DNA from: Phycisphaerae bacterium
GTDB lineage: Bacteria > Planctomycetota > Phycisphaerae > WQYP01
Reading direction: 5' to 3'
Assembly: GCA_035545015.1 (NCBI GenBank)
Contig: DASZZD010000079.1
Location: forward strand, 623 to 64,622
DNA: 64,000 nt
Made by a program: the position numbers and the translations under genes. Shown piece after piece: positions 31,980 to 56,692 of this stretch. The notes below the pieces were generated by a model. It searched no databases. It had not been told where the DNA came from and saw nothing but the letters and a program-made list of their open reading frames with translations. Positions within the stretch are counted from its first letter, which is position 1, and each line of letters starts with the position of its first letter.

Positions 31980-31993
31980 CGAGGCGTCCGTGG

Positions 31994-33742: not shown

Positions 33743-34756
33743 TTGACGATGAACGAATTGGAATATCTGGCGGATGAAGCGGGCCAGGGCGCACAGGAGT
33801 CGGGAGCGGTCGGCGGCGCGATGCCGGATGGGGCGCTGCTCGATGCGTACTCGCGGGCCGTGGTCGGGGCGGTCAACAAAGTTGGCCCTGCGGTGGTGCA
33901 CATTCACGTGCGGATGTCGGAGAACGGCCGGAATCGCGGCGGCAGCGGCAGCGGCGTGGTGTTTACGCCCGATGGGTTCATTCTCACCAACTCGCACGTC
34001 GTGCATGGAGCATGGCAGATTCGCGTGGCTTTTGCGGATGGACGTGAGGCGGGGGCGACCCTCATCGGCGACGATCCGCACACGGACCTGGCGGTGCTGC
34101 GTGTGGATGCGCGGGATCTGCCGGTGGCGGAACTCGGCGATTCGGCGGCCTTAGCGCCGGGGCAATTGGTGATCGCGATCGGCAATCCGCTGGGATTCCA
34201 GGCGACGGTCACGGCAGGCGTCGTCAGCGCGGTGGGGCGGACGTTCCGCAGCCAGAGCGGCCGGCTCATCGACAACGTGATTCAGACGGACGCGGCGCTC
34301 AATCCCGGAAACTCCGGCGGCCCCCTGGTGGATTCGTCGGGGCGCGTCGTCGGGATCAACACCGCGGTGATCGCCATGGCGCAGGGCCTGTGCTTCGCGG
34401 TGCCGGTGAATACAGCCAAGGTGGTGGCGGCGGAGCTGATGGCGCACGGCAAAGTGAGCCGGAGCTTCATCGGCGTGATGGGCCAGACGGTACCGATTCC
34501 GCGGAAGCTGGTGCGTTTCTGGAAGCTGGAGCAGTCGAAGGGCGTGCTGGTGGCCGGTGTCGAGGAAGGCAGTCCGGCGGCGCGGGCAGGGCTGGAGGAG
34601 GGCGATGTGATCCTGTCGATTGCCGGGCAGGTGGTGGCGGATGTGGATGTGCTGCATCGGGTGTTGACGGCTGAGCGCATCGGCATCGCGACGGAGCTCG
34701 TGGTGCTGCGGCGGTATGAGCGTCTGGAGCTGGCGATCGTGCCGGCGGAGGCGTGA
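33743..34756 (+). CDS. HtrA/DegP-family trypsin-like serine protease with one PDZ domain
   Basis: ILTNSHVV (His), DLAVLRV (Asp) and GNSGGPL (Ser) triad, plus a C-terminal PDZ. Confidence 0.85.
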   Translation: MTMNELEYLADEAGQGAQESGAVGGAMPDGALLDAYSRAVVGAVNKVGPAVVHIHVRMSENGRNRGGSGSGVVFTPDGFILTNSHVVHGAWQIRVAFADGREAGATLIGDDPHTDLAVLRVDARDLPVAELGDSAALAPGQLVIAIGNPLGFQATVTAGVVSAVGRTFRSQSGRLIDNVIQTDAALNPGNSGGPLVDSSGRVVGINTAVIAMAQGLCFAVPVNTAKVVAAELMAHGKVSRSFIGVMGQTVPIPRKLVRFWKLEQSKGVLVAGVEEGSPAARAGLEEGDVILSIAGQVVADVDVLHRVLTAERIGIATELVVLRRYERLELAIVPAEA

Positions 34757-34758
34757 CG

Positions 34759-36903
34759 TCAGCGCGTCGTGGCGGGTTCGAGCTTTGCGAGAGTTTCGTT
34801 GACTTTGGCGATGTCCTCGGGCGAGAGGCGTTTGGGTTCGTCGGGCGCGAGCTGGGCGTTGAAACGGAGGGCTTCGCGCAGGTAGCGGGCGCGCTCGGCG
34901 GGAGGCAGGTCGGAGGGCGGCAGCGCGAAGCGAAGCCGCACACGGGCGTTGGCGCGATCGAGCGTGAAAAGCCGGCGAATGTCATCGGCCACCGGCTGGC
35001 CGAGGCGCTGCTTCAGGAGGATGCGCTGATCGAGAAGGTCGGTGGCGCGAGGCGACCGGGCGAGCGCTTCATCGAGTGCGTGCAGGGCGCCGGCGTTGTC
35101 GCCGGACATCGCGGCGCGCAGGTAGGCGTATTCGGCGGGGGCGGGATCCCAGGGCATCGTGGCGTTGAGCGTGGGAATCCAGAGCGTGGCGGCAATGAAG
35201 ATCGCAGCGGCGCCCAACGCAATCGGCGGCGCAACGCGCGGCAGCTTTGATCGCGCGCGCCGGCCCGGGGCGGCGGCGCCGGCGAATCCCAGCAGAAACC
35301 AGAAAAGCATCGCCGCCGCGCCGGTCAGCACCGCCATGTTGATCTGGTCGTAAACGAACATCCCCAGCGCCCCCATGAGCCCGCCGATCGCCAGCGAGGC
35401 GCTCCGCGGCGGCGCGGATTCCATCAGAATAAAGGCGCCGGCTCCCGCGCATGCGGCAAGCAGCGCATAGAGGATCGCGAGATAAAGAAAGTAAACGTCA
35501 TACGGCCCCACGATTGCATAACGCAACATCCACCAGACGCCGCAAAACATCGCCGCGACCACCAGAACATTGGTGGACAGAATCGGCCGGGGCTCGGCGG
35601 TTTCATCAGGCAGAGCGAACGGTGCACGGGCGGCGGCGATCACGCTGCAGGCGATCAAGAGGGCCAGCAGCGCCGCCGCAGGAATTCCGAGTTCGGCCGC
35701 GGCGCGGACAAAATAGGAGTGCGGATCGCTGACATCCTCCGGAGCGGCGGGACGTTTGACGGACGTGTAATAGCTGCCGAAGTTATCCGGGCCGACGCCT
35801 GCGAGCGGATGATCGCGCACCAGCGTCGCGGCGGCCGTCCAATAGTACCAGCGGAAACGAAGGCTCTTGCCCGGCAGCGAATCATGCCGCACGCCATAGG
35901 CGACAACGGCCGCACCGCCAAGAAAAAACGCGCAGAACCCGGCAACGATCAGCACGCGGCGATAGCGGGCGAAAATCCCGTGCAGGCCGACGCCGGCGAT
36001 CGTGGCCACGGTGCAGATCACGACCATGCCCATGCCGCCATTGCTTTGCGTGAGCACGAGCATCCACGTTCCCAGCGCAAAAAGAATTGCCGAGGTGCTT
36101 ATGCCGATGATCGCGGCGATCGCGTTTTCAGTGCGCATCGCCGTGCGGAAGAACGAAACCGCCAGGCCGGCGGCCATCACCAGCAGCCCCACGAATGCCG
36201 CCGCCGTGACATTCGCCAGCGTGAGAAATCCTTCAAGCTCTCCGCCGTGGAGACGGGCTTCATACGCCGCCGCTTCCGGCGACCCCGGCGCAATGCCCTG
36301 GCTGCGGAGGATCTGATCGCGATTTTGCTCGAACGTGGCGATCGTCTCGGGCTGATCGACAAAGTGCTGGATCATCCCCTGCATGATCCAGGCGGCAAGA
36401 ATGGCGATGAAGAGCGCCGTCAGAAACTGCCGCGAGCGCCGGCCCGTCAGCGCAGGATGGCACAGCAGGCTGACGGTCCAGCCGGCGGCGAGAATCGCGA
36501 TGATGTCCGTCGAGCCGACCGCCGCCGCAAATCGATTGGCTGCGCGAAACGTGGAATTGAGCGCGCATCCGGCGATGGCCGCGATAATGAGCCACCGCAG
36601 GAAATGCTTCCACGTGATCAAATCAGCGGCGGCGGCAATCGCGGCGCCGGCGGCGGAGAGCAGCAGCGCGATCGTCGCGAAGCCCGTCGTGACGCCCGGG
36701 CCGACCTCCGGAAGCGCAAGATGGTGTTCAGGATCCGTCTGTGCGAGCAGCCGTTCCTGCTTTTGCGCCAGGCCTTCGCGCAGCGTCTCGGTCATCGTCA
36801 GACGCAGCGAGAGGACCAGCGCCAGCCCCGCGAGAACGACGAACGCCCAGGTGCGCAGCGGGCCGGTGATCGGCATGAATGTCGCAGGAGATTCCGGCGT
36901 CAT
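34759..36903 (-). CDS. O-antigen ligase (Wzy_C) family membrane protein with C-terminal TPR region
   Basis: Multi-TM body with RDHPLAGVGPDNFGSYY, the O-antigen ligase loop. The C-terminal soluble repeats are TPR-like. Confidence 0.75.
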   Translation of the reverse strand: MTPESPATFMPITGPLRTWAFVVLAGLALVLSLRLTMTETLREGLAQKQERLLAQTDPEHHLALPEVGPGVTTGFATIALLLSAAGAAIAAAADLITWKHFLRWLIIAAIAGCALNSTFRAANRFAAAVGSTDIIAILAAGWTVSLLCHPALTGRRSRQFLTALFIAILAAWIMQGMIQHFVDQPETIATFEQNRDQILRSQGIAPGSPEAAAYEARLHGGELEGFLTLANVTAAAFVGLLVMAAGLAVSFFRTAMRTENAIAAIIGISTSAILFALGTWMLVLTQSNGGMGMVVICTVATIAGVGLHGIFARYRRVLIVAGFCAFFLGGAAVVAYGVRHDSLPGKSLRFRWYYWTAAATLVRDHPLAGVGPDNFGSYYTSVKRPAAPEDVSDPHSYFVRAAAELGIPAAALLALLIACSVIAAARAPFALPDETAEPRPILSTNVLVVAAMFCGVWWMLRYAIVGPYDVYFLYLAILYALLAACAGAGAFILMESAPPRSASLAIGGLMGALGMFVYDQINMAVLTGAAAMLFWFLLGFAGAAAPGRRARSKLPRVAPPIALGAAAIFIAATLWIPTLNATMPWDPAPAEYAYLRAAMSGDNAGALHALDEALARSPRATDLLDQRILLKQRLGQPVADDIRRLFTLDRANARVRLRFALPPSDLPPAERARYLREALRFNAQLAPDEPKRLSPEDIAKVNETLAKLEPATTR

Positions 36904-38060
36904 CGGGTGTGCTCCCCGACGCGTTCAAGAACCGCGATGACCGTGAGCATCCCGAGGAGTTGCAGCGCCAGCAGCGCGGCCGACGTGGCGTCGCTGTGCA
37001 GCGCAAGCAGCGGCGCGGCGATGCCGGTCGCCAGCGTGACGCCATAAATGATCAACACCGCTGAGCGCGTCGAGAAACCGTGCCGCGTCAGGCGATGCGA
37101 GAAATGGTTGGTGTCGCCGGTCATCGGAGAGCGGCCCTTGAGCAGGCGAAGGACTGAAACGATCACCAGATCATAAAGCGGAACGGCCGTGACGAAGAGC
37201 GGCATCAGCACCGCGTAGGGCGCGCGCCCGGGTTGATAGTACGTCGTGCGGATCGTGAGCGCCGCGAGGATGAAGCCGAGGATCATCGAACCGCCGTCGC
37301 CCATGAAAATGGATGCGGGCGGAAAGTTGAAGCACAGAAATCCCAGAATGCTGCCCATCAACGTAAGGAGCAGGCCGGCGACGAACCATTGGCCGTTGAT
37401 GCAGGCGGCGATCAGAAAAACCGCGGCGCAGATGAACGCCACGCCGGCGGAAAGGCCATCCATGTTATCGAGGAAATTGAAGGCGTTCGTGAGCGCGACG
37501 ATCCACAGAACGGAACAGAGCACGGAGACGAAAAAGCCCGGCGTGGGAAAATTGCCGAGGAACGTGAGGACACGAAATGACCCGGCGCCGAATGATTCGC
37601 CGACAAAGACGAGCGCTGCGGCGATCGCGAGCTGCGCGAGGAGCTTGGGCCAGGGGTCGAGCGGCTTGCGATCATCGAGCAGGCCGAGGAGATGGATGCC
37701 GAATGTCGCCATGAGCAACAGCACGAGCAGCGGCGCATGGGCGCGCATGCCCGGAAGATGGAGAACGACATCGGGCAGATCGCGACCAAAAACCTGGAAT
37801 CGCGCCAAGTCGTGGCCATGTGTGAGGACAACAATGGCAATCAGCGCGATGACCAGTGGAATCGCAAATCCCCAGAAAATGCCAATGCCCCCATTGCGCG
37901 GCGTCGCAACGGTGTGCACCTTGCGCTGTCCCGGCGCGTCCATGAGCCCCAGCCGCCGCGCATAGCGGCGCGCCAGGGCGGTGCCGATAAGGCTGAGAAC
38001 AAAGGCCAGAACAAACAGGGCGGCGCCGCCGACGAGCATGGGGCGGAACCCTCCGATCAA
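36900..38060 (-). CDS. MraY/WecA-family undecaprenyl-phosphate sugar-phosphotransferase (GT4 class)
   Basis: …MDAPGQRKVHTVATPRNGGIGIF…NFLDNMDGL… are the PNPT family motifs. 4-nt overlap with the ligase gene. Confidence 0.85.
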   Translation of the reverse strand: MIGGFRPMLVGGAALFVLAFVLSLIGTALARRYARRLGLMDAPGQRKVHTVATPRNGGIGIFWGFAIPLVIALIAIVVLTHGHDLARFQVFGRDLPDVVLHLPGMRAHAPLLVLLLMATFGIHLLGLLDDRKPLDPWPKLLAQLAIAAALVFVGESFGAGSFRVLTFLGNFPTPGFFVSVLCSVLWIVALTNAFNFLDNMDGLSAGVAFICAAVFLIAACINGQWFVAGLLLTLMGSILGFLCFNFPPASIFMGDGGSMILGFILAALTIRTTYYQPGRAPYAVLMPLFVTAVPLYDLVIVSVLRLLKGRSPMTGDTNHFSHRLTRHGFSTRSAVLIIYGVTLATGIAAPLLALHSDATSAALLALQLLGMLTVIAVLERVGEHTR

Positions 38061-38063
38061 AAC

Positions 38064-38630
38064 TCAGCGGCCCGCGGTGATTCGCTGGAGCTGCTCAAGA
38101 TAGGCCGTGCGCGCCCGAACGAAAAACGCCCCCGCCTCGCGCGTCTGGTAGTCGGCGTACGTCCACGGCCAGGGCGTCCAGGCGTTCTGCTGCCAGTGCA
38201 ACGTGACCTCGCCGTAAATTCCCTCGGCAATGTACACCCGATGCGAATGATCCTTGGTGGTCGCCAGGATCACCTTGTAGCGGTGTACGTAACCGGGATC
38301 GATGTTGATCGGGCGGGCGACCGCTCCACCGCTGCGCGGCGCGGCGAACTGTCGCGCCAGCAGCGTCTCGGCCATGTTCGTTTCCAGCTTGCACTTCGCC
38401 AGGTGTTCGGGATTGAACAGCGCCTCGAAACGCACCCATTGCCGCAGCAGATGCGGCCCCATTTCCCCGGCGTAATAATCGGTGAAGGTGAATGGCAGAA
38501 TTTCGGAGGCGTCATCGATCCGGCCATACCATTGCGCCAATTCCGCGCGCGCCGCGGCGAGCTGGTCTTCCGAACCGGCGAGCAGGCCGGCAAATCGGCA
38601 CACGGGCATCGGGGACGTCGGGACGGCCAT
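38064..38630 (-). CDS. DUF4416 family protein
   Basis: ILPFTFTDYYAGEMG…INIDPGY…TKDHSHRVYIAEGIYGEVTL matches the DUF4416 consensus. Confidence 0.7.
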   Translation of the reverse strand: MAVPTSPMPVCRFAGLLAGSEDQLAAARAELAQWYGRIDDASEILPFTFTDYYAGEMGPHLLRQWVRFEALFNPEHLAKCKLETNMAETLLARQFAAPRSGGAVARPINIDPGYVHRYKVILATTKDHSHRVYIAEGIYGEVTLHWQQNAWTPWPWTYADYQTREAGAFFVRARTAYLEQLQRITAGR

Positions 38631-38675
38631 TGAACCTCCTGTCCGCCCTATGCTACGGGAGGCGCGCGCGGCGGG

Positions 38676-39797
38676 CTAGTCATCAAACAGCGCAAGTTGG
38701 CGCGGCGGAACGGCGGGGCTCGCCGAAACGCCGCGAGCCCGCAGGTGGCGCCCGAACTCGTTGACGAATCCGTGCGTCAGCAGAAAGTGCCGCGCGCCGC
38801 GCTCCCGCATCGCATCCACAAACGCATTGAGCTGGTCAAAATCGCAATGATCCGACAGCGGAAACGCTTCCGCCGCCTGATAGCGATAGGTGGCGCCCGA
38901 GTCGATCGCCCAACCCGTGACAACGAGGATATGGGCGTTTTTGATGCTGGCGATCATCCGCGAATTGCGAATGTGCGGCGGCGCGATCAGCACCGTGCCT
39001 TCGATGTTGCCCGCCTCATGGCGGCGCACCTCCCCGACACGCACGCCGTGCCGGTGATAAATCTCCGTGATCGCGTGCGCGGCGCCGTGCATGGCGATCG
39101 CAAAACCGTTTTCCGCGAGAATCCGCGCGACTTCCTGCGCCTTGCCCAGCGAATAGCACAAACACACCGGCTGCTTCCCCTCGGCAAACGCCGCCGCCAC
39201 CGAATCGCACAGCCGCTCGATCACCTCGCCTCGCACCGGAAAGCGATAGCGCGGCAACCCATAGGTGCATTCCATCAGCACCACATCCGCGCCATCGGAT
39301 GGCAGCGCGCAACCCGGAACGGTCAACGCGTCCCGCCCGGGCGCATAGCGGAAATCTCCCGTATACAGCAATCGGCCGCGCGCGGTCGTGATCCGCGGCA
39401 TCGCACTCCCCAGCACATGCCCCGCCGGAAACAACTCGATCTCGAGGCCATCCTCCCGATGGATCGCCCCATGAGGCAACGGCGCCAACTGCGTCGTAGC
39501 GGCCAATTCCGGCGCTTCCCCCCCGCGCGCATCCGCGGGATCGCCGAGCCGGTGCGCCAGCAGGTCGCACGTGATCGGATGGGCGATCACCCTTCCGTGC
39601 CGCCCGAGATGATCGGAATGGGCATGCGAAACGATGGCGTGCGAGCGCGGAAAACGCGCATCGAGATGCCAGGGGGAGCCTCTAAAGCGCAGCTCGTCCG
39701 TGGCATCCAACAGGTCGCTGGCGACAAAATCCGCGGATCGGCAGGAGCTCAACATGCTTGCAATTCTATGGCGGATCGTGCGAAAAAAAGAAACCAC
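38676..39797 (-). CDS. MBL-fold metallo-hydrolase (beta-CASP-like nuclease candidate)
   Basis: VSHAHSDH metal-binding motif and later conserved D/H positions. The start may be an internal Met. Confidence 0.75.
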   Translation of the reverse strand: MVSFFRTIRHRIASMLSSCRSADFVASDLLDATDELRFRGSPWHLDARFPRSHAIVSHAHSDHLGRHGRVIAHPITCDLLAHRLGDPADARGGEAPELAATTQLAPLPHGAIHREDGLEIELFPAGHVLGSAMPRITTARGRLLYTGDFRYAPGRDALTVPGCALPSDGADVVLMECTYGLPRYRFPVRGEVIERLCDSVAAAFAEGKQPVCLCYSLGKAQEVARILAENGFAIAMHGAAHAITEIYHRHGVRVGEVRRHEAGNIEGTVLIAPPHIRNSRMIASIKNAHILVVTGWAIDSGATYRYQAAEAFPLSDHCDFDQLNAFVDAMRERGARHFLLTHGFVNEFGRHLRARGVSASPAVPPRQLALFDD

Positions 39798-40003
39798 TGG
39801 GCAGAAAGAACAGGCGGCGCAAAATTGCGCATTTACCCACAGCGAATCGCCACGCCCTCGCGTATACTAATGTTTCGCCCCGGGACATCGCTTCATCCGG
39901 GGGCTCTCTCGGCCGAACAGCGTTGCTTCGTGCGGCACAGCTTGACCGGGATCAAGGATGATGAACAGGCTCGCTTCCCACGCAACCGTTCGGAGGAATT
40001 TCA

Positions 40004-41143
40004 ATGTCGGCAAACGCCAGGGCGGAGCGCGGCGGCGACGCTGCCGCTGCACACGTGAAATTGTCCCCACGCTTCACCGGACCGGACAAATTCATGAAAG
40101 AGTTGCGCCGCCGGGTGGACGCCTATTTCGAAACCACCGCCCGCCGCCGCCGCGATTGCCCCGGCATGTACTTCAAAACCGCCACCATCCTCACCTGGTT
40201 CTTCGGGGCCTACCTCTCCCTCCTGTTCTTTGTCCATAGCCCCTGGCTGATCGTCCTCCTGTCGGTGGTGCTTGGGCTCTCGCTCGCCGCCATCGGCTTC
40301 AACATCCAGCACGACGGCAGCCACAAGGGCTACTCCGACCGCCAGTGGATCAACAAAATGATGGCCATGACCCTGGACCTCATGGGCGGCAGCTCCTACC
40401 TCTGGGACTGGAAACACAACTCCATCCACCACACCTACACCAACATCGCCGGCGAGGACGATGACATCGATCTCGGCTGGCTCGGACGCCTCTCCCCCCA
40501 TCAACGCCGCTTCTGGTTCCACCGCATGCAGTCCATCTACATGTGGGGCCTCTACGGCTTCCTCGCCATCAAGTGGCACTTCATCGACGATTTCTACCAG
40601 ATCGCCCGCGGACGCATCGGCGAGAAAAAAATCCCCCGCCCCAAGGGCATGGACCTCGTCGTCTTCATCGGCGGAAAAGTGATCTTCTTCTCCCTCGCCT
40701 TCGTCGTGCCCATGCTGCTGCACCCCTGGTGGGCGGTCCTCGCAACCTACGCCATGGCGGCCTTCACCAGCGGCGTCGTCCTCAGCATCGTCTTCCAGCT
40801 TGCGCATTGCGTCGAAGGCGCGCAATTTCCGCAGCCCGTCGAGCAGGGCGCCGGCCAACGCTCCATGATGGAAACCGAATGGGCCATCCATCAGGTCCAA
40901 ACCACCGTCAATTTTTCACGCCGCAACCCCGTCCTGAGCTGGTTTCTCGGCGGCCTGAATTTCCAGATCGAACACCACCTGTTTCACAAAATCAGCCACG
41001 TCCACTATCCCGCCCTGAGCCGCGTGGTCGAGGAAACCTGCCGGGAGTACGGCGTCAGCTACAAAGCCCACCGCTCCGTATTTTCCGCGGTGCGGTCGCA
41101 CTACCGCTGGCTCGTCCTGATGGGCAGGCCAGTCGCGGCGTGA
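40004..41143 (+). CDS. Membrane fatty-acid desaturase (front-end/DesD-like)
   Basis: Three His boxes: HDGSHKGYS, HNSIHHTY and QIEHHLF. Confidence 0.85.
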   Translation: MSANARAERGGDAAAAHVKLSPRFTGPDKFMKELRRRVDAYFETTARRRRDCPGMYFKTATILTWFFGAYLSLLFFVHSPWLIVLLSVVLGLSLAAIGFNIQHDGSHKGYSDRQWINKMMAMTLDLMGGSSYLWDWKHNSIHHTYTNIAGEDDDIDLGWLGRLSPHQRRFWFHRMQSIYMWGLYGFLAIKWHFIDDFYQIARGRIGEKKIPRPKGMDLVVFIGGKVIFFSLAFVVPMLLHPWWAVLATYAMAAFTSGVVLSIVFQLAHCVEGAQFPQPVEQGAGQRSMMETEWAIHQVQTTVNFSRRNPVLSWFLGGLNFQIEHHLFHKISHVHYPALSRVVEETCREYGVSYKAHRSVFSAVRSHYRWLVLMGRPVAA

Positions 41144-41155
41144 GCGGGCCTTCCA

Positions 41156-42082
41156 TCAGCGCGGCGCCGGCCAGGGTTTCCCCAGCTCCAGCGGCCCCGC
41201 GCCGGCACGCGACAACAACGTAAGCGCCACCAACGTCGCCGCATAAGGCAGCATGTCGAACAGCCCGTGCGGAATCGCCACCGTCGCTCCCGGCAACGAC
41301 GCCAGCGCCGATTGCAGCGCGTCAAGCGCCCCGAAAAGCACCGCCGCCGCCGCCAGCCCCGGCAATGACCAACGCGCAAAAATCACCAGCGCCAGCACCA
41401 GAAATCCCTGCCCCGCCGTCATGTTCAACTGGAACGAATGATTGCGCATGGTCGACAGATACGCCCCCGCCGCGCCGGCGCACGCCCCCGCGAAAAGCAC
41501 CGCCAGCAGACGCCCCCCGCGCACGCGAATCCCCATCGCATCCGCGGCCTCCGGCGCATCGCCCAGCGCCGTCACCACCAGGCCCAGGCGCGTGAATCGC
41601 AGCAACACATCTACCACGCCCGCCAGGATCACCGCCGCATAAAACAAACCGTACTGCTGAAAAAGCACCGCCCCTATAAAAGGCATGCGCGACAACACCG
41701 GCACTGACACCTGTTCATACATCGCCGGCGGTGCATGTGTCGGCAACGCCCCCTGCAACATCCGCCACGCCGTCGTCGACATCCCAAATGCCAGCAGGTT
41801 CAACGCCGCCCCCGCCACAATCTGATCGGCACGCGCGTAAACGGTCACCAGCGCGAAGAGCCCCGCCAGCGCCACCCCCGCCGCTGCTGCCGCCGGCACC
41901 GCCCACGCAACCGAGCCCGTCAGCACCGCCGCGCCGTACGCCGCGATCGCTCCCACGATCATCAGCCCCTCGATCCCGATGTCGATCACCCCGGCACGCT
42001 CCGCCACCAGTTCCCCCGTGCCCGCCAGAAGCAGCGGCGTCGCCGACAGCAGCGCTTCGTGAAAAATGAAAGTGGCATCCAT
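41156..42082 (-). CDS. ABC transporter permease (BMP/nucleoside-type importer)
   Basis: Multi-TM permease within a four-gene ABC operon. Confidence 0.85.
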   Translation of the reverse strand: MDATFIFHEALLSATPLLLAGTGELVAERAGVIDIGIEGLMIVGAIAAYGAAVLTGSVAWAVPAAAAAGVALAGLFALVTVYARADQIVAGAALNLLAFGMSTTAWRMLQGALPTHAPPAMYEQVSVPVLSRMPFIGAVLFQQYGLFYAAVILAGVVDVLLRFTRLGLVVTALGDAPEAADAMGIRVRGGRLLAVLFAGACAGAAGAYLSTMRNHSFQLNMTAGQGFLVLALVIFARWSLPGLAAAAVLFGALDALQSALASLPGATVAIPHGLFDMLPYAATLVALTLLSRAGAGPLELGKPWPAPR

Positions 42083-43185: not shown

Positions 43186-43259
43186 GGCGGAAGTGTACTG
43201 GCCGGCGCATTTTTCGTAAGCCGGAACCGCGGATTTTCACCAGCCTCGAAACGACGCTC

Positions 43260-44759: not shown

Positions 44760-44779
44760 CAGGACCGCCGATCAATGGT

Positions 44780-44804
44780 CACGAAAAACACGAACCGCAC
44801 GAAG
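44780..44804. repeat. Triple 9-bp direct repeat CACGAAnnn (copy B), just upstream of the ABC ATPase start
   Basis: cacgaaaaa cacgaaccg cacgaag. Followed at 44847-44873 by ctctccgtg x3. Confidence 0.7.
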
Positions 44805-44890
44805 CAGACTTCACACGGTGCAGCCACAATCCCGCTTGCGTCAACCTCTCTCCGTGCTCTCCGTGTCCTCCGTGGTTATTCCGTCGAGCG

Positions 44891-45931: not shown

Positions 45932-45992
45932 ATCACGCTCCTCAAATCACCCGTTTACCAAAACCCCGCGCGCCGTCCGCCGCCGCGCGCAC

Positions 45993-46760: not shown

Positions 46761-46791
46761 GCGACTCCAAATCGCTCATTGTCGGTCGTTA

Positions 46792-48348
46792 TCAGTTTTC
46801 CGCCGGCACCACCAGCGCCCGCTTCAACACCTTCCCCGTCGCTGTCATCGGAAACTGCTCCACAAAATACACTTCCCGCGGCGCCTTATACGCCGCCAGC
46901 CGATCCCGCACGAACCCGCGCAATTCGCTCGCCGTTGGCTTCGCGACCGCCTCCGCCTCGCCCCCCGCCTTCAACTGCACAAACGCCACCGGCGCCTCCC
47001 CGCGCGATTCATCCTTCACCCCGATCACCGCCGCGATTAGCACCGCCGGATGCTCCTTCAGCACATCCTCGATCTCCCGCGGAAACACCTTTTCCCCCGC
47101 CATGATGATCATGTCCTTCTTACGCCCCGTAATGAACAAAAACCCCTCTTCATCAATCTTCGCAATGTCACCCGTCTTGAACCACCCCTCCGCCGTAATT
47201 ACCTCCGCCGTCACCTCCGGCTTGTTGTAATACCCCTTCATCACCATCGGCCCGCGAATGTACAATTCCCCGCCATCCACCCCGCGCGCCAAATCCCGCC
47301 CCTCCTCATCCACCGTCTTCACCTCCACCGACGGAACCGTCTTCCCCACAGATCCCGCCTTGTGCGCCCATGGCAAATTGATCGCCACGATCGGCGACGT
47401 CTCCGTCAGCCCAAACCCCTCCATCAACGTAATTCCGAACGTGTTGCGAAACTGCTCGATCAGCGGCACCGGCAACGCCTCCCCGCCCGATATCGCCAGC
47501 TTCACCGTCGCCAGCGACTCCCGCTTCGCCGACTTCGCATGCGCCATCACCGCATACATCGTCGGCACCAGAATCAGCACCTCGATCGCATGCTGCTGCA
47601 CCGCTTGAAACACCGCCGGCGGCGAAAACCTCGCCTGGTACACCGTCTTCGATCCCAGCATCAGCGGTATCAGAAAGCACCCCATCAGCCCCATCGTGTG
47701 AAACATCGGCAGCACGCCCAGAAAAATCGTCTTCTCCGTGAACCGCGCATGTTCGCACGAATGTATCGCGTCCGACTCCAGATTCCCGTTGGTCAGCATC
47801 ACCCCCTTGGGCACGCCCGCCGTCCCCGACGTATACATGATCACCGCCACATCAGCCGGATTCCGCGCCGGTATCGGCCGCACCAGCTTCCTCAGCGCCC
47901 CCGCATCCACCGCCAGCGCCGCCATCGCCGCCAGCCCCGGCCGCTCGAACTTCAGCGACTCCATCGTGATCACTTTCAACTCCCCTCCCACCAGCGCCGC
48001 CACCCCTTCCGCCAGCGCCCGCAAATGCTCGATCGTAAAAATCACCTTCAACCCCGCATCCCGCACAATCCCCGCCAATTCCTCGGGCTTCAGCAGATAA
48101 TTCAGCGGCAGCACGATCCGCCCATCCCACCGCGCCCCGCCGAACGCCACCGCAAACGCCGCGGTGGGGGGGATCAGCAGCCCCACCTTGTCGCCAAAAA
48201 TCTCCCGCGGCACGAGCGTCTGCAAATGATCCACGAACACGTGCGACCCATACACCAGCTCCCGATACGTCAGTGTCCGCTGATCGTCCACGATCGCCAC
48301 CGCGTTGGGGGTCCGAAGCGCATGCTCCAGCACTTTTTCCAGAATCAT
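46792..48348 (-). CDS. Long-chain-fatty-acid--CoA ligase / AMP-dependent synthetase
   Basis: YTSGTAGVPKGV AMP-binding motif. Start taken at MILEKVLEH rather than the longer track ORF. Confidence 0.85.
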   Translation of the reverse strand: MILEKVLEHALRTPNAVAIVDDQRTLTYRELVYGSHVFVDHLQTLVPREIFGDKVGLLIPPTAAFAVAFGGARWDGRIVLPLNYLLKPEELAGIVRDAGLKVIFTIEHLRALAEGVAALVGGELKVITMESLKFERPGLAAMAALAVDAGALRKLVRPIPARNPADVAVIMYTSGTAGVPKGVMLTNGNLESDAIHSCEHARFTEKTIFLGVLPMFHTMGLMGCFLIPLMLGSKTVYQARFSPPAVFQAVQQHAIEVLILVPTMYAVMAHAKSAKRESLATVKLAISGGEALPVPLIEQFRNTFGITLMEGFGLTETSPIVAINLPWAHKAGSVGKTVPSVEVKTVDEEGRDLARGVDGGELYIRGPMVMKGYYNKPEVTAEVITAEGWFKTGDIAKIDEEGFLFITGRKKDMIIMAGEKVFPREIEDVLKEHPAVLIAAVIGVKDESRGEAPVAFVQLKAGGEAEAVAKPTASELRGFVRDRLAAYKAPREVYFVEQFPMTATGKVLKRALVVPAEN

Positions 48349-48503
48349 CGGGTGCTCCGCGGTTGACACGATTGCGCGAAACCCGCATGTTGCAGGCCGC
48401 TCTGTTTCGCCGTCGCCCGGCCACCTGAACTGTAACCCACCCGCGCGGCGCGCACAACGCGAATCACCCGCCGGCAGCCACGCGCCGGCGCCTGGAGCCG
48501 CTG

Positions 48504-49280
48504 ATGAAAATCTCGCCCGTCGCACCGCTGATCCTCCTCGCCGCCGCCACGCTTGCGCTCTACGCCTGCACCGCCAGCGACGCCGACCGCCGCGCCCTCG
48601 CCCGGGGTTTTTCCGATTACCAGGCCCGACGCTTCGACGAAGCCGAAAACGCCGCCGCCGCCTACCTCGCCAAATATCCCACCGCCGAAAACGCCGACGA
48701 AGCCTACTATCTCCGCGGACTCGCCCGTCTCGCCAAAAGCGACACCGGCGGCGCCGCTCAGGACCTCTCCCTCGCCATCCAGAAATCCCGCCGCACCGAT
48801 CTCAAATCCAAAGCCTGGCGCGCCCTCGGCGACATCGCCTTCGACGGCGTCCGCTTCGCCGAAGCCGCCGCCGATTATCAGAACAGCCTCGCTGCCGGCG
48901 GCCTCCCGCCCGCCGACGCCGGATACGTCAACTACCGCCTCGGCGAATGCCTCCAGAACCAGGGCCAATGGGATCGCGCACGCCCCTTCCTCGACAAAGC
49001 CGCCGCCTCCCCCGATCCCACCATCGCTCCACGCGCCAGGGAACGCGCCGCTCTCCGCTATTTCACCCTTCAATTTGGCGCTTTCCGCGACACCGCCAAC
49101 GCCAACAACCTTGCCCGCGAACTCAAATCCGCCGGCCTCGCCGCCGGTGTCTTCACCGCATCCCACGACGGACAGACCCTCTACGCCGTCCGCGCCGGCG
49201 GTTACGCCACCTGGGCCGCCGCCGATCAGGCACGCGAAAAACTGCTGGCCAAATACCCGCTCCTCACGGTATACCCCTGA
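48504..49280 (+). CDS. Lipoprotein with TPR repeats and C-terminal SPOR (peptidoglycan-binding) domain
   Basis: Lipobox LYACT. TPR-like helices. C-terminal FTLQFGAFRDTANANNLARELKSAGL…YAVRAGGY is a SPOR motif. Confidence 0.7.
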   Translation: MKISPVAPLILLAAATLALYACTASDADRRALARGFSDYQARRFDEAENAAAAYLAKYPTAENADEAYYLRGLARLAKSDTGGAAQDLSLAIQKSRRTDLKSKAWRALGDIAFDGVRFAEAAADYQNSLAAGGLPPADAGYVNYRLGECLQNQGQWDRARPFLDKAAASPDPTIAPRARERAALRYFTLQFGAFRDTANANNLARELKSAGLAAGVFTASHDGQTLYAVRAGGYATWAAADQAREKLLAKYPLLTVYP

Positions 49281-49307
49281 CCGATCCTCCGGCACCTCGG
49301 GTGACGC

Positions 49308-50864
49308 TTGCCACTGCCCCGATTCTTTCACATGGAACCGGCCGCCAGCGCCGGCGCCTCCGCCCGGGTCTACATGCCCGCCGTCATGGTCTCGCGCGCC
49401 CTCGCCCTCATCCGCCTCCTCCTCGTCGCCCGCCTCCTCGGCGAAGCCCGCAAAGGCCAATACGGCGTCTATCAGCAAGCCCTCGTCCTCATGAACTGGC
49501 TCGTCCCTGTCGTCATGTTCGGCCTTGGTGATGTCGCCGAACGCTACGCCGCCCGCTTCGAACGCGAAGGCCGCCTCGCCTGGTGGGTCCGACGCCACGC
49601 CGTACGCCTCGCCGCCACCGGCCTCGCCGCCGCAACCCTTCTCATCGCCGCAACCCCTTGGGTCGGCCGCAACATCTTCCATCTCGATCCCTCCGCCGGC
49701 CGCGCCTGGATGCTCGATGCCACCTGCGCCGCCGCCATCATCTTCCTCGCCCTCTACCAATACGTCGCCGCCCTCCTCCGCGGCATGCGCGCCTACAACG
49801 CCGTCGCCGGCATGGAAGTCACCTCCGCCATCCTCCTCCTGATCCTCTCCACTCTCGCCGCAATCCACGGATCAGCCGTCGGCCTCGTTTACATGTACGC
49901 CGTTTCCGTCGGCGTGCCCATGCTCTTCTTCGCCGGCCTCGCCTGGTCGCGCATCAACGCCCCCACCACCGCCGCCGGCGCGCCCCGCTCCGTCCACCTC
50001 TCCCGCTTCGGCCGCTGGGCCCTCGTCCGCCTGCTCCTCATGATGAGCTTCGGATTCCTGAGCGTCTGGGGCGTCGGCTATCTCGCCGCCCAGGCCGGTT
50101 GGCCCTCAAGAGACGTCCAGGAAGCCCAGGCCGAATACGCCATTCCCTACCGCATGGCCGAGGTGCTCTCCTACATCGCCATCACCGCCTGGGCCTCCAC
50201 CTACGGAATCGCCGCCAAATTCTGGGCCCATGGCCAGACCCGCCGCGCCCGCGCCGAGCTCTTCCGGATCGGGCGATTTGGCGCAGCCGCGCTCGCCCTC
50301 ATGGCGGCCCTTGCGGTGATTTGTCGCAGCCCCATTGGCTGGCTCCTTCCGGCTTATGCCGACGTCGTCCGCACGCTGCTGCCCCCGATGGCCGGCGTCT
50401 TCATCTGGTATGGCCTCCTCGCTTTTTGCAGCACCTACGCCGATCTCCGCGAAACGCCCCACCGCGGCGCCTGGCTCTGGGGAGCTGCTGTCGCCGGACA
50501 GGCCGCCGTCATGCTGCTCACCCCCGGTGGCGCCGGAACACCCGCCGACGCCATCGGACCCCGCGAACGCGTCGTCGTCGCCTCCGCCGTCGGCGTCGGA
50601 CTCGCCCTGCTCATCCTCGCCCCCTTAGTCCTCTGGCGACCCCTTCGTCTCACCGCAACCGCCGTCCCGCCCGCGCTGGTGGCCCTTTCCGCCCTCGCCC
50701 TCTTCGTTCCCGCCGATCTGGTCGGCTGGATCGCCCCGGTCGTCCTCATCGCCGTCCTGCTCCTGCTCCAGAGCATGGGCCTTCTCGTACGCCGTTCCGA
50801 CCGCCGCCGCTGGCGTCGCTGGCGCAACGCCCGCGCTCCTGCCCCGCTCGCACCGATCGCTTGA
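49308..50864 (+). CDS. Polysaccharide biosynthesis / oligosaccharide flippase (MOP superfamily, Wzx-like)
   Basis: About 12-14 TM helices with a flippase-type arrangement, in a polysaccharide-assembly neighbourhood. Confidence 0.7.
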   Translation: MPLPRFFHMEPAASAGASARVYMPAVMVSRALALIRLLLVARLLGEARKGQYGVYQQALVLMNWLVPVVMFGLGDVAERYAARFEREGRLAWWVRRHAVRLAATGLAAATLLIAATPWVGRNIFHLDPSAGRAWMLDATCAAAIIFLALYQYVAALLRGMRAYNAVAGMEVTSAILLLILSTLAAIHGSAVGLVYMYAVSVGVPMLFFAGLAWSRINAPTTAAGAPRSVHLSRFGRWALVRLLLMMSFGFLSVWGVGYLAAQAGWPSRDVQEAQAEYAIPYRMAEVLSYIAITAWASTYGIAAKFWAHGQTRRARAELFRIGRFGAAALALMAALAVICRSPIGWLLPAYADVVRTLLPPMAGVFIWYGLLAFCSTYADLRETPHRGAWLWGAAVAGQAAVMLLTPGGAGTPADAIGPRERVVVASAVGVGLALLILAPLVLWRPLRLTATAVPPALVALSALALFVPADLVGWIAPVVLIAVLLLLQSMGLLVRRSDRRRWRRWRNARAPAPLAPIA

Positions 50865-51078
50865 CACCAGCCGCCACGCGCTCCACATTCTCGGAAGCAC
50901 TCCGCGCCGGAAACAGGTCAACTCCCCCCGCGGGACACCCGATGCTTTAGGGGCCGCCACCTGCCAGAAAGAGTGGCGAATCCTGACGGAAGAGTCCGAT
51001 TTCCTATGAACGGCGCTGGGAAGTTCGAGCAGGCACAGTGCTTGCGTGGTAGTTCCGCGCTTCTTGAGGTGACCTCTA

Positions 51079-52175
51079 TGAACTTCGTGCTCCACATCCT
51101 TGGACAAGTCCAGAAGAACGCACCGGCCTGGGGGGGACGCGGAAATCACCTTGCCGATGATAGCCTCGCCGCCGTACGACGCGCCCTGCTCGCCGGCCAA
51201 TACACCCACGCCGCCGAACTCCTCGCCGACGCAACCGGCACGGACTCCAAAGAATCCCTCGGCACCACAGGCCTCACCTTCGCCCGCGGTCAGCTCAGCC
51301 TCATGGCCGGCGCCTACTCCGAAGCCGCCTGGTGCTTTGCCGAAGGCATGGAACGCGTCATGGGCGCCGCCGATGGCAGCCTCGAAGTAGGCGCCGGATC
51401 GATCCTCGAAAAAATGATCGGCGCCGGCGAAGACGCCCTCCGTTCGGGCAACTGCGGCCGCGCGGTAACCCTGCTCAGCACTGCCCGCGGCCTCGTCGAC
51501 CAACTCCTGGGCGCTGAAGCCGGCCTTTGCGTCGCAGAAGCCCGCATCGCCGCCCACATGCGCGCCGGTCGCGTCGAACGCCTCGTGCCCCTCGCCCGTC
51601 TCGGGGACACCCTGCTCAAAGCCGAAGCTCGTGCCCGCCTCGCCGGCAGCGTCGGCGCCCTGAAAACCGGCGGCAACCGCGCCGATGTCGCCTGGGCCAT
51701 CGGCGCCGGCCGCGTCACCGAACTGCTCGAAGGCGAATTCGAAACTCTTTCCCTCGCCAGCCGACGCCTCCGCGGCCACGCCGAAGTCCATCTGCGCCTG
51801 GGCCTCGTCGCTCGCACCCTCGGCCACCCCGACACCGCCGCCTGGGCATTGGGCGAAGTCCTCGCCGTTCATCCTCATCACGTCTCCACCGCCGCCCGCC
51901 TCGGAGCAACCCTCGTCGAGCGCGGCGCCGATAGCGCGAGCGTTCTGGGCATTCTCGCCGTCGCGTTCGCCGTCCCCACCGACGCCATCCGCCGTTACGC
52001 CGATCTCGCCGCCGCCGCCCACGACGCCGACTTCGACCAGCGCGTCGACCGCTTCGCCGCCGGCGGCGCCGGCCCCGTCGTCCGCGCCAATCTCGCCTTC
52101 GCCCTCGCCGAACTCGGACTCCTCGAAGGGCCCCGCGCCGCCTGGCGCGAACTCCACGGCCTGCAAAAGGCCTGA
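51079..52175 (+). CDS. Hypothetical helical (TPR-like) protein
   Basis: Long in-frame ORF with region-consistent C-ending codon usage. No family recognised. Start guessed at MNFVLHIL. Confidence 0.4.
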
Positions 52176-52508
52176 CGCCCCCAGTCCATCCAGAATGCCA
52201 TCGCTGAAACGCTCACAAGCGCAGCGGTCCGGCATCGATCCCCAGCAATTCCAACAGGATTTCGCCTCGGCCGTGCAATCGGTTCAGTCCGGTGGCAACG
52301 TTGACTTCGCATCGCTGTTCCAGAATTTCCCCGCGGGTTCGGCGGTCGACACTATGGCCTGATTTTCCGGAAGCCATTACCCCAGCGCGGCCACCGGGCG
52401 GAGGATGCGCCCGGTTGCCGCCGCTATTTTTGCACCGGCCAGCACGAGTGGCCAAAATCCACCGAACTCGCCGATGAAGCCTCCACATGGTGCGCTCGGG
52501 AGTCGGTC

Positions 52509-53636
52509 ATGTCGCGAACGTTTGTCGAAGTCGCCATCCTGCTTGCCGCCGCCGGCTTCACGCGTGCTGCGCCCGCCCCGCCCACACGCATTCCCGATGC
52601 GCGGATCGTCAGCGTCCAATTCACCGATCAACATCGCGGCTGGGAGCGAACGGACCAGGGCCTCCTGCTCACGGACGATGGCGGCCACACCTGGCGCACG
52701 GTTCTCGCAAACGCACCCTGGAGCGGCGAGTGGGGATCAGGCTGGTACTTCAGCCACGATTGGCACGCGATCGATGCGCAGCATGCCTGGGTCGCCTTTG
52801 CCGCCGCTTCGGGGAAAGTTCACTTCCGCCGCACCACCGATGCGGGCAAACACTGGAGCGATGCGCTCGTCGCGACCGGGACGCAGGATACGCTCGCCGT
52901 CAACGTCTCGTTCGCCGATCCAAAGCATGGCTGGATCCTCGTGATCCCCGAGCACGCCATGAATTCCTCGCCCGGCGTCCTGTATCGCACGCTCGACGGA
53001 GGCACGCACTGGCGCGAAATCGGCTCGGTGGAATCGCCGGGATCGCCTCCCAAGGGCCTGCCGCGCGGCGGAAACATCGCGTTCCTCGACGCCCACACCG
53101 GCTGGCTCGTGGGCTCCGATACCTCCACCACTCCCTCCACAATGGCCGTCACTCACGACGGCGGCGCCACCTGGCGGTCCGTCCCTCTCAAACCCCCCGC
53201 TGGCGTGACCGGTGACCTCGACGTCCTCGCCCCTCCGGTCTTCCTGAATCCCACCGAAGGCCGCCTCGGCGTGCGCATCGGCGCCGCCCACGTGATCTAC
53301 GCAACCCACGATGCCGGCAAACACTGGCAAGCCCTCACCGTCACCCGCTCCACCGGCCAATTCGATTTTCTCACCCCCCGCGACGCCTGGATCTGGCGCA
53401 ACGCCGCCCCCCTTTACAACATCCCCAACGGCGCCCTCCTTCACACCACCGACGCCGGCCATTCCTGGCAACCCCTTCGCGGCCCACAAAGCCTCGAACA
53501 CATCGTGCAAAAGAACGAAACCGTCACCGAACTGACCTTCATCGACCCCCACCACGGCTGGGCCTGCATCCAAAACAACACCACCACACGCCTCGTCCAC
53601 ACCACCGACGGCGGGCAAACCTGGACGGAAGAATAG
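52509..53636 (+). CDS. Secreted BNR/Ycf48-like beta-propeller protein
   Basis: Signal peptide. Repeated GG.HW / DGG.TW BNR-like motifs (DDGGHTWRTV, DAGKHWSD, DGGTHWREI, HDGGATWRSV, HDAGKHWQAL, TDAGHSWQPL, TDGGQTWTEE). Confidence 0.7.
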   Translation: MSRTFVEVAILLAAAGFTRAAPAPPTRIPDARIVSVQFTDQHRGWERTDQGLLLTDDGGHTWRTVLANAPWSGEWGSGWYFSHDWHAIDAQHAWVAFAAASGKVHFRRTTDAGKHWSDALVATGTQDTLAVNVSFADPKHGWILVIPEHAMNSSPGVLYRTLDGGTHWREIGSVESPGSPPKGLPRGGNIAFLDAHTGWLVGSDTSTTPSTMAVTHDGGATWRSVPLKPPAGVTGDLDVLAPPVFLNPTEGRLGVRIGAAHVIYATHDAGKHWQALTVTRSTGQFDFLTPRDAWIWRNAAPLYNIPNGALLHTTDAGHSWQPLRGPQSLEHIVQKNETVTELTFIDPHHGWACIQNNTTTRLVHTTDGGQTWTEE

Positions 53637-53649
53637 GTATGAAATCGCG

Positions 53650-54744
53650 TCACACATAACCTTCTCCCTTCTCGAGCACCTGGGGGTCAGGTTCAGCAAG
53701 GTGGGGCAGGAGGGTGTCGAGAAAATTGGCGGGGGTGTGGAATTGGTGAACGAGGGTGTGCGCGTTGGTGGCGAGTTGGGCGGCGCGGGCGGGGTCGGAC
53801 AGGAGTTGCTGGATGGCTTCGCGCAGGGCGATGGGATGTTGCGGCGGGACGGTGACGGCGGCGCCGGGGGAGAGGCGCGAGGCGAGGCCGGTGGTGCGGG
53901 TGATGATGACGGGTTTGCGGCACGCGGCGGCTTCGAGGTAGGCGGTGAGGCCGGCGCAGTAGGGATTCTCGAATAGGGGAACGATGATGACGGCGGCCTG
54001 GTGATACAGATCGCGGAGGGCGGACCAGTCGTAGAACTGGCGGGTCATGTTGGGGGGGAGCGGATCGGGAAGGGAATCGCGGAGCGTGCGGGCGTCTTTG
54101 GAGTAGGCGGAAATTTTCACCTGAACGGGCAAGTCACAGGTGGCGGCGGCGAGGGTTTTGTAGTCGCGCTGCTCGAGGCCAACAGAGACCAGAAGAGGAC
54201 TGAGTGCTGAGGACTGAGGACTGAGAGCGGGGCGGAAGAAGTGGGTGTCGGTTTGTTCGGGGAGGAGGATGGTGCGGCCTTTGGGGAGGGCGAGGGCTGT
54301 TCGCAGGAAGGCGAGTTGGGGGTCGGCGTTGGTGAAGAAGTTGTGGATGGCGGGGAGGGGGCGGAAGAGGCGAAGGGCGGCTTTGGCGCGGGGGCGGTTG
54401 AGGTTGTGGACGAACATACTGATGCGCGGGCGGCGGGGGGGGGTGAGTTTGCGGGCGAGGGTGGCCAGGGGGATGCCGATGTCTTCGCCGGTGGCGTAAA
54501 TGGTGTCGCTGGGGGAGGTTTGCCGGAGGATTTTGCGGGCGTGGGCCCAGAGGGTGGCGGTGGGGAAGATTTTGGCGCGAAGCGTGTCGGCGGCGGTGGG
54601 GGCGAGGCCGGGCGTGGGGAGATGGAAGGTGGTGGGGGTGCGCTGGTCGAGGTCGAGCAGGACGTGGCCGGGGGCGCGATCGGCGGCGGCGTCCTGCCGG
54701 ATCTTGTCGAGGTCGAGAGGTTTGGAGAAAGCGATGTGCAGCAT
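53650..54744 (-). CDS. Glycosyltransferase family 4
   Basis: C-terminal GT4 EX7E-type region (…AACRKPVIITRTTG…). The track ORF begins at a TTG at 54771; ATG at 54744 is more likely. Confidence 0.8.
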   Translation of the reverse strand: MLHIAFSKPLDLDKIRQDAAADRAPGHVLLDLDQRTPTTFHLPTPGLAPTAADTLRAKIFPTATLWAHARKILRQTSPSDTIYATGEDIGIPLATLARKLTPPRRPRISMFVHNLNRPRAKAALRLFRPLPAIHNFFTNADPQLAFLRTALALPKGRTILLPEQTDTHFFRPALSPQSSALSPLLVSVGLEQRDYKTLAAATCDLPVQVKISAYSKDARTLRDSLPDPLPPNMTRQFYDWSALRDLYHQAAVIIVPLFENPYCAGLTAYLEAAACRKPVIITRTTGLASRLSPGAAVTVPPQHPIALREAIQQLLSDPARAAQLATNAHTLVHQFHTPANFLDTLLPHLAEPDPQVLEKGEGYV

Positions 54745-54760
54745 GTTCACTTTTCGATTT

Positions 54761-56657: not shown

Positions 56658-56692
56658 GGGGGATGCCTGGGAGTTCCAGGCTCAGGGGGGGA

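Follow-up and report, generated by a model that had tools for sequence, protein, structure and literature searches.

Codon third positions in a stretch of a planctomycete chromosome follow the DNA strand rather than the gene, and part of that stretch has the opposite polarity to both of its neighbors. The question raised by this locus is whether the reversed part is the scar of a recent event or a lasting state. The window analyzed here is 64 kb out of the 65,814-bp contig DASZZD010000079.1, from the metagenome-assembled genome (MAG) of an uncultured member of the Phycisphaerae (Planctomycetota; protein accessions HVS728xx). The original prediction, made from the letters alone, was that a block at 34.76-53.64 kb is a recent, not yet ameliorated inversion. 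We found that the block is old and common to a species-level relative. What is new here is that the reversed polarity is both old and maintained, which is more unusual than the recent inversion that had been proposed. The explanation we favor, with confidence about midway between belief and doubt, is that the block is a long-lived polarity domain and not a fading inversion scar, in which an asymmetric process, probably replication direction, truly runs opposite to that of the flanks.

To describe the skew, genes were called from frame-specific G+C and composition was measured on the plus strand throughout; GC skew was calculated at third codon positions (GC3 skew) and at four-fold degenerate sites (skew4). 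Plus-strand GC3 skew per gene was +0.45 to +0.81 for most genes at 0.7-33.5 kb (a few short open reading frames were much lower), -0.45 to -0.76 for all eleven genes at 40,004-53,636, and +0.64 to +0.91 for the genes from 53,650 to the window end. The corresponding skew4 values were +0.55 to +1.00 for most left-flank genes (short reading frames again lower), -0.53 to -0.88 for the block and +0.71 to +0.98 on the right. A single base made up 66-95% of the four-fold sites in most genes, with the flanks 75-95% G and most of 40.0-53.64 kb 73-85% C on the plus strand, and in the right domain 80% of the two-fold plus-strand C/T sites were T. Both GC3 and four-fold signs were independent of gene orientation, confirming that the skew tracks the DNA strand and not the gene. 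Intergenic DNA showed skew signs matching those of the neighboring genes. Codon-level selection was therefore ruled out as the cause.

The whole-sequence skew in 2-kb windows peaked at +0.54 and -0.36. Values of 0.35-0.54 correspond to a G excess of 0.2-0.3 per nucleotide, roughly tenfold the value of ~0.025 that is called typical in SkewDB (PMC8941118), and the earlier claim of a magnitude far above the usual bacterial level was upheld. Synonymous codons fell into two nearly exclusive sets: genes on one strand use the G-ending set, and those on the opposite strand the C-ending one. The first and second codon positions also varied with strand, so that the two classes of genes probably encode proteins of differing composition. 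We know of no stronger strand bias in any cellular chromosome (up to 95-100% G at the synonymous sites of one strand). Genes were not in excess on the G-rich ("leading-type") strand, and the absence of a gene excess on that strand is unusual among bacteria.

We compared the window genome (W) with its closest relative (R), a 50-kb contig, DASZTO010000060.1 (GCA_035548175.1), obtained as the three pieces L131, L001, and L137. R was colinear with the window from 19 to 64 kb save for a few gene-sized indels, with an amino-acid identity per gene of 61-99%, mostly 78-97%. R shares the gene order, the orientation, and both junctions of the block, including the 2-nt spacer between htrA and the O-antigen ligase gene, and its skew profile matches that of W in the step, the near-zero zone, and the gradient. 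Because the junctions and the skew pattern are identical in R, the origin of the block predates the species-level split. The distance between W and R under a general time-reversible (GTR) model was 0.37 substitutions per four-fold site in the left flank, and the proposed inversion cannot be recent on this evidence. Four-fold sites differed between W and R by 23% in the left flank and the block, 27% in the right flank, 41% in the four-gene operon between left flank and block (zone X), and 7% in the saturated right domain, values that reach 55-78% of the ceiling set by each composition. The opposite orientation that the prediction expected in related genomes was found in none of them; the closest relative has the same orientation and the distant ones were uninformative at the edges.

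The two edges of the block differed in shape. The right switch was confirmed at the predicted convergent BNR/GT4 gene pair as a step at 53,636/53,650, with the cumulative minimum and the best-fit step at ~53,680. The last ~10 codons of the glycosyltransferase (GT) gene, by 53,680, are still C/T-rich on the plus strand in both W and R. At the left edge, skew4 from htrA through the ABC ATPase gene was +0.39, +0.03, +0.11, -0.11, -0.27, -0.57, -0.74, -0.70, and -0.84, and a sigmoid centered at ~37.1 kb with a 10-90% span of ~8.8 kb fitted better than a single step (twice the log-likelihood difference, 2dLL = 267). The four zone X genes (ligase, WecA-like, DUF4416, and MBL-like) had GC3 skews of +0.07, +0.17, -0.06, and -0.13; they were neither G- nor C-ending and stood midway between flank and block at two-fold as well as four-fold sites. 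Near 34.8 kb only the A/T third-position skew changes sign, because of the mix of two-fold codon types in the zone X genes. The sharp flip predicted at the htrA/ligase pair (34756/34759) was thus seen for A/T third-position skew and for the inferred ancestral state, but not for G/C, which is graded over ~8.8 kb. Likewise, the strand reversal of codon endings predicted for all genes at 34.76-53.64 kb applied to those at 40,004-53,636 but not to the four at 34,759-39,797.

A search of the block ends for inverted repeats and for insertion sequence or recombinase remnants gave only low-complexity compositional matches, and the flanking genes carried no mobile-element domains. Scans of the boundaries for tRNAs, Rfam families, promoters, and terminators were all negative, with no RNA genes or repeats at 53636..53680. 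A blastn comparison of W 46,965-48,351 with L001 showed many 66-70% matches between unrelated C-rich coding stretches, and these weak matches of L001 to 46.9-48.4 kb were rejected as homology because they are compositional artefacts. Extreme skew yields spurious nucleotide similarity and spurious repeat families.

The substitution regimes of W and R were characterized with a GTR process fitted on the left flank. Each region was treated as a mixture in which the flank process has weight p and its strand mirror 1-p, and was fitted to the joint 4x4 W/R table with the ancestral composition free and the time fixed to that of the flank. The estimator returned p = 0, 0.5, and 1 in simulations and was stable under gene bootstrap. 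On the G-rich strand the rates were.475 for C>G vs.094 for G>C, 1.05 for A>G vs.45 for T>C, and.62 for T>G vs.24 for A>C, each change towards G being 2.4-5 times faster than its complement. This bias drives synonymous sites to 75-95% G on that strand.

The results showed that the stretch at 40.0-53.65 kb has been evolving as the mirror image of its flanks at least since the W-R split. Its observed composition was G.08-.10 / C.79-.83 with a divergence of.228, and the mirror model predicts.09,.82, and.211, respectively. Amelioration since the split would give G.21 / C.70 and a divergence of.435, and was ~315 log-likelihood units (lnL) worse than the mirror model. With the time left free, amelioration needed 0.4 times the flank time and still lost to the mirror model, which has three fewer parameters. 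At two-fold sites, an independent site class, the observed W-R differences were.217 and.180, and the hand-computed two-state expectations are.213 and.160 under the mirror model but.305 and.235 under amelioration. The spectrum of differences in the block (C/G 41%, C/T 28%, and C/A 20%) was the complement of that in the flank (G/C 46%, G/A 29%, and G/T 12%). A combination of slow sites and ameliorated fast sites was rejected, since 89% of the block differences involve C and that model predicts differences involving G. The claim that the block is "not yet ameliorated" therefore fails: the block is not ameliorating at all, its mixture weight lying close to zero (Table 1), and zone X alone ameliorates.

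The inferred ancestor of zone X was G.22 / C.66. Zone X departed from the reversed regime a short time before W and R diverged and is now about half converted under the flank process; one polarity boundary has moved by ~5 kb. Because this ancestor was C-rich, a reversed unit of ~18.9 kb between the two convergent gene pairs probably once existed. Amino-acid identity to R was lower in zone X, at 78-84% in three genes, with DUF4416 at 95%. Counts of sites with W=G/R=C vs W=C/R=G, from 34.76 to ~48 kb and in the GT genes, were 123 vs 70, 129 vs 82, and 43 vs 14, while the left flank was symmetric (113 vs 130). W is thus slightly further converted than R in these regions, and this lead is consistent, so the reversed domain is slightly wider in R on both sides. 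An opposite global fork direction in W and R was rejected because the left flank and the high-skew domain are symmetric. The right high-skew domain is as extreme in R as in W, which places it under a G-enriching regime, and its four-fold divergence was only.073-.077. The regions and their fitted weights are listed in Table 1.

Table 1. Composition domains and boundaries of the window, with the weight p of the flank process in the W/R mixture fit and its 95% confidence interval (CI).
Feature	Position	Strand	Composition and remarks	p	95% CI
Left high-skew domain	600..11800	both strands' genes	plus strand 80-95% G at four-fold sites; skew4 +0.82 to +1.00		
Left flank, lower magnitude	11900..33600	both	skew4 ~+0.55 to +0.83; G.75 / C.15; reference for the flank process		
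htrA-like protease gene	33743..34756	+	skew4 +0.39; gradient begins here; stop 2 nt from ligase stop		
Zone X: Wzy_C O-antigen ligase, WecA-like GT4, DUF4416, MBL-like	34759..39797	-	four-gene operon, near-zero G/C skew; fitted as 34.76-39.8 kb	1.0	0.85-1.0
Reversed-polarity block proper	40004..53636	both	eleven genes; plus strand 66-84% C at four-fold sites; fitted as 40.0-53.64 kb	0.05	0-0.05
Block: desaturase and two permeases				0.15	0.05-0.30
Block: ABC ATPase to acyl-CoA synthetase				0.00	0-0.05
Block: SPOR to 400-aa protein				0.05	0-0.15
Block: BNR				0.0	0-0.2
Minus-to-plus polarity step	53636..53680	.	13-nt BNR/GT spacer and final ~10 codons of GT gene		
Two group-1/GT4 glycosyltransferase genes	53650..55990	-	skew4 +0.76, +0.71 (R: +0.65, +0.51); intermediate regime	0.70	0.55-0.85
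GT genes and SRPBCC	53.6-57 kb			0.85	0.70-0.95
Right high-skew domain	56190..64000	.	skew4 +0.94 to +0.98; 88-93% G; fitted as 56.1-64 kb	1.0	gene bootstrap all 1.0

We further examined other relatives, sampled as ~21-kb pieces that total ~200 kb from a handful of genomes. Strong strand-locked skew was present in L129, L133, L134/L139, and L140 and weaker in L002, L138, and L141; it is a trait of the clade, but a patchy one. The pair L134/L139 (four-fold divergence ~9%) switched from -0.97 to +0.8 over ~2 kb, centered within an intact araA gene. The cluster in which this happens, ABM-ribH-nusB-YHS-araA-araB-aldolase-X-SASA, is colinear with 25.7-33.5 kb of the window, where skew is positive throughout. 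This switch, inside a colinear cluster and an intact gene, cannot be an inversion breakpoint. The minus domain of this pair had p = 0 (48 lnL better than p = 1) and the adjoining plus domain p = 0.9, with complementary difference spectra in the two. Mirror-image regimes therefore lie side by side in two pairs, W/R and L134/L139. L140 changed from +0.86 to -0.75 across about 20 kb.

At an amino-acid identity of 75-87%, relatives in the clade keep the same gene order for only a few genes in a row. One relative, at 73% identity, was syntenic with the block core (41.1-52.2 kb). The ancestral adjacencies (htrA-BNR or ligase-GT) were looked for in L129, L130, L133, L134, L138, L140, and L141, in which the order at the edges was scrambled and uninformative. 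A scan of JGI metagenomes with the ABC ATPase gave nothing closer than 43% identity, and no relevant report of extreme or mosaic GC skew, in Planctomycetota or in other bacteria, came out of a literature search. JGI sample 3300056388 contains a contig encoding a 96% identical AraA, a candidate third close genome. In L130 (JGI Ga0501044_0005261) the acyl-CoA synthetase is 73% identical, the G+C is 71%, there is no strand skew, and the order of the block core is kept; extreme skew has thus been gained or lost within this family. The araA switches (L134 10,001-11,527; L139 10,001-11,527; L133 10,001-11,512) fall within ~160 bp and run in opposite directions. This near-coincidence is too tight for chance, and araA may serve as a recombination anchor. 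araA is 75-76% identical to Verrucomicrobia araA, which suggests lateral transfer.

If the block is a polarity domain, replication is the natural candidate for what sets it, as it is to our knowledge the only well-established process that is strand-asymmetric regardless of gene orientation. For this reason the block would be replicated by leftward forks. The point of fork divergence would be ~53.65 kb, accompanied by lesser upward steps near ~52.3 and ~56.1 kb, and the leftward forks would meet rightward ones in a broad convergence zone at ~34-44 kb that has drifted to the right. The graded left boundary counts in favor of a domain because the end of an inversion is a step. More widely, the chromosomes of the clade appear to be mosaics of near-saturated skew domains. 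A stronger form, which we think unlikely but worth stating, is that they consist of replication-direction domains of tens of kilobases with many fixed initiation sites and drifting termination zones, like those of archaea and eukaryotes, and that the block is one such domain; it would run from an initiation site at ~53.65 kb to the convergence zone at ~34-44 kb.

Several observations weigh against a replication domain. The window contains no dnaA gene or DnaA-box cluster, and the spacer at the step is only 13 nt. No dif site was found with a proteobacterial-type core at <=3 mismatches, a single consensus that may not be that of the host. Genes are not co-oriented with the inferred forks, and those flanking the step would be head-on to the diverging forks. 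In L133 a plus-to-minus step at about codon 150 of araA is followed by a minus domain of ~10 kb and then by positive skew, and a downward step inside a gene is a misfit with a diffuse termination zone. The regime test takes substitution to be independent among sites, the left flank to be stationary, the divergence time to be the same for the whole region, and gene flow from lineages with the other arrangement to be absent. The skew is seen at the scale of the window, 64 kb of a 65,814-bp contig, and not at that of the replicon, and we know of no precedent for a bacterium with local reversals of replication direction.

The inversion itself has to be separated from its recency. The opposite polarity, the sharp right edge, and the C-rich zone X ancestor speak for an inversion of the block, but recency, relaxation, end repeats, and an opposite orientation in relatives do not. 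A recent, un-ameliorated inversion is contradicted on three of the four tests for that category (orientation in relatives, relaxation, and end repeats). An ancient inversion with ends at 34,757 and ~53,680 may have seeded the unit, as indicated by the ancestral reversed state reaching 34.76 kb, the block-type composition in the GT tail, and the reunion of WecA and ligase with the GT genes. The proposal that a polysaccharide locus had been split is borne out in so far as undoing an inversion would set WecA and the Wzy_C ligase beside the two GT genes. There is some chance, though we doubt it, that nothing more took place: an ordinary inversion of 34.76-53.64 kb, older than the split, would persist as a slow passive fossil, and the mirror regime would be an artefact of allele import by homologous recombination from un-inverted lineages or of unmodelled rate and context effects. 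The right edge at a convergent gene pair, the flip of both A/T third-position skew and inferred ancestral G/C polarity at 34,756/34,759, and the tail of the GT gene, as if the end of the reading frame had been rebuilt at a breakpoint, agree with such an event, as does the WecA and ligase reunion. Rearrangements are also common in the clade, and the L133 switch within an intact araA is the expected trace of recombination between homologous copies. However, amelioration fails at both four-fold and two-fold sites, its rate-heterogeneity version predicts the wrong differences, and uniform amelioration cannot yield a 9-kb gradient, nor one half-converted operon beside an untouched rest. No relative has the opposite orientation and the ends bear no repeats, gene flow would need to cross ~14% nucleotide divergence, and an independent pair shows the same two regimes without rearrangement. 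Since switches occur inside colinear clusters and intact genes of relatives, a switch need not mark an inversion breakpoint.

Polarity could instead be carried by the DNA itself, independent of fork direction, through a process that reads the existing bias and reinforces it; we regard this as improbable. One example would be directional pervasive transcription, in which G-rich, C-poor transcripts escape Rho, form R-loops, and re-expose the same strand, and another a repair or nicking system with polarity. Rho has an established preference for C-rich, G-poor RNA, and R-loops are favored by G-rich RNA, although a link to the present case would be our own extrapolation. Under such a process the polarity of a segment would survive inversion or import for an indefinite time and domain walls could creep, which agrees with the stability of both polarities side by side in two species pairs, with boundaries that differ in place among the colinear DNA of relatives, and with the ~5-kb movement of one boundary. 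A preference for all changes towards G on one strand resembles a bias in fixation or repair more than the effect of any one type of lesion, and the absence of origin features at the step and of gene co-orientation with polarity fits as well. On the other hand, we know of no feedback that produces skew this large, the boundaries gave no motif, RNA, promoter, or terminator signal, and a short-range feedback is not obviously coherent over tens of kilobases. It is very hard to believe that the window holds the sole origin (~53.65 kb) and terminus (~35-43 kb) of the replicon, with very unequal replichores and almost unidirectional replication. The minus-to-plus switch expected of an oriC is present and sharp at 53,636-53,680, the plus-to-minus switch expected of a terminus is present and graded around ~37 kb, and both sides look as if at equilibrium. 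Yet the step, which sits between stop codons 13 nt apart, has no DnaA-box cluster of the kind that, with an AT-rich unwinding element in non-coding DNA and usually near dnaA/dnaN, marks an oriC; one-mismatch DnaA boxes number 4 in 64 kb (4.5 expected), with none near it, and the AAA protein at 59,578-60,909 was rejected as DnaA because Pfam shows no DnaA domain. Switches occur also in the unrelated 21-kb pieces of L133, L134/L139, and L140, far more than a single origin and terminus in each genome could account for, and their positions are not tied to the same genes across genomes. Together with the lack of dnaA, a DnaA-box cluster, and dif, this agrees with the original prediction that the two switches are not origin and terminus. 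We give equally little credence to the view that the reversed or neutral DNA, especially 34.76-39.8 kb, is an island acquired horizontally from a genome with another skew or none. O-antigen ligase and WecA genes are often mobile, zone X has near-zero G/C skew with T3 > A3 in the gene sense, like unskewed high-GC genomes, and three of its four proteins are the less conserved ones noted above. But zone X is present, colinear, and equally saturated in R, its inferred ancestor was C-rich and not neutral, there is no integrase, tRNA, or repeat, and G+C is like that of the surroundings. The block core is syntenic in a relative and the block genes are of housekeeping type. The block does not qualify as an oriC or as a genomic island, nor can it be shown to be a dif terminus.

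The long-lived polarity domain that we favor was also compared with known systems. Skew anomalies caused by inversion are a "forensic record" of rearrangements in bacteria (SkewDB, PMC8941118). The block is like such scars in that its skew is opposite to both neighbors and one edge is a step at a gene boundary, and unlike them in that it is shared with a species-level relative, is not relaxing, has one graded edge of ~9 kb, and has a magnitude ~tenfold the usual, with relatives that switch without rearrangement. Its plus-to-minus change and a position able to drift resemble a bacterial terminus or fork-convergence zone, but the search for a dif-like site was negative, an origin-type switch is only 14-19 kb away, and several such zones turn up in small samples of related genomes. 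Skew domains and skew jumps at origins are known from the multi-origin chromosomes of mammals and archaea; the skew "N-domains" with jumps at origins were reportedly described by Touchon et al. in 2005 and Huvet et al. in 2007. The block shares with N-domains, whose polarity is kept by replication direction, a sharp upward jump, a gradual fall, and intermediate plateaux, and both polarities are at mutational equilibrium in place (W/R and L134/L139). In contrast, the domains here belong to a bacterium, measure only 10-40 kb, and have nearly saturated skew, and no origin proteins or motifs were identified. The shapes vary: upward changes are a step in the window and 2.0 kb wide in L134, and downward changes span 8.8 kb in the window and more than 20 kb in L140 and are a step in L133. 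Animal mitochondrial genomes (e.g., PMC4182315, PMC2939890) also have strand asymmetry, with comparably extreme four-fold skew and positional gradients, and their polarity reverses upon inversion of the control region. Those genomes are small and single-origin with deamination-type spectra (C-to-T, A-to-G), whereas here all changes towards G are favored and most differences are G/C transversions.

A reversal of skew in a bacterial genome is usually taken for an inversion or an assembly error and is expected to fade. Here two species have both retained the reversed state across a synonymous distance of ~0.37 substitutions per site. Bacterial chromosomes have one origin as a rule; if fork direction sets the polarity, a bacterial lineage would replicate in local domains and that rule would be overturned, and near-saturated skew would make the replication program readable from the sequence. 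If fork direction does not set it, a self-reinforcing strand-asymmetric process new to science would be at work. The clade is a natural system for the rate at which composition follows a change of regime, with the half-converted operon at 34.76-39.8 kb as a calibration point. Skew is unsafe for finding origins or checking MAG assemblies in such clades. Saturated domains cap synonymous divergence at ~7%, so that identity measures such as average nucleotide identity are misleadingly high there. The SRPBCC/AHSA1 gene (56,190-56,657) encodes a protein 97% identical to that of R, with 3/75 four-fold sites differing and 89% G.

The window has a G+C of ~63% and carries ordinary chromosomal genes, including dnaE, ribH, nusB, araA/araB, and an ABC transporter. 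The eleven block genes encode a desaturase, two permeases, an ABC ATPase, a Bmp-like binding protein, an M50 protease, an acyl-CoA synthetase, a SPOR/TPR protein, two proteins without assigned function, and a BNR protein. The gene identities given in the original prediction were mostly confirmed by Pfam; the exceptions were the "flippase" (49,308-50,864) and the MBL match, which was below threshold. Neither the former nor its neighbor (50,973-52,175) had a Pfam match at E < 0.01. Even in relatives with as little as 44-45% identity (L002, L130), both remain neighbors of the SPOR/TPR gene.

The magnitude of the skew also changed without a change of sign, from +0.92 to +0.72 at ~11.8 kb and from +0.73 to +0.96 at ~56.1 kb. 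Both steps (11,720-11,940 and 55,990-56,190) are intergenic and lie between divergent genes, and with them the window has at least six composition domains and not three. Four short genes within the positive domain (14,223-14,684; 16,585-17,433; 18,587-18,937; 25,371-26,174) showed weak skew (skew4 +0.2 to +0.5) and lower GC3; recent acquisition, a wrongly called frame, or a different constraint could explain them. The indels specific to R include a HicA/HicB toxin-antitoxin pair between araB and the aldolase gene (L131 13,153-13,580). R also has an alpha-L-fucosidase gene (skew4 +0.77, below its neighbors) and a 283-aa gene (L137 6,572-8,128 and 2,951-3,802, respectively), in place of which the window has an AAA ATPase and a GH43 xylosidase (59,578-62,856).

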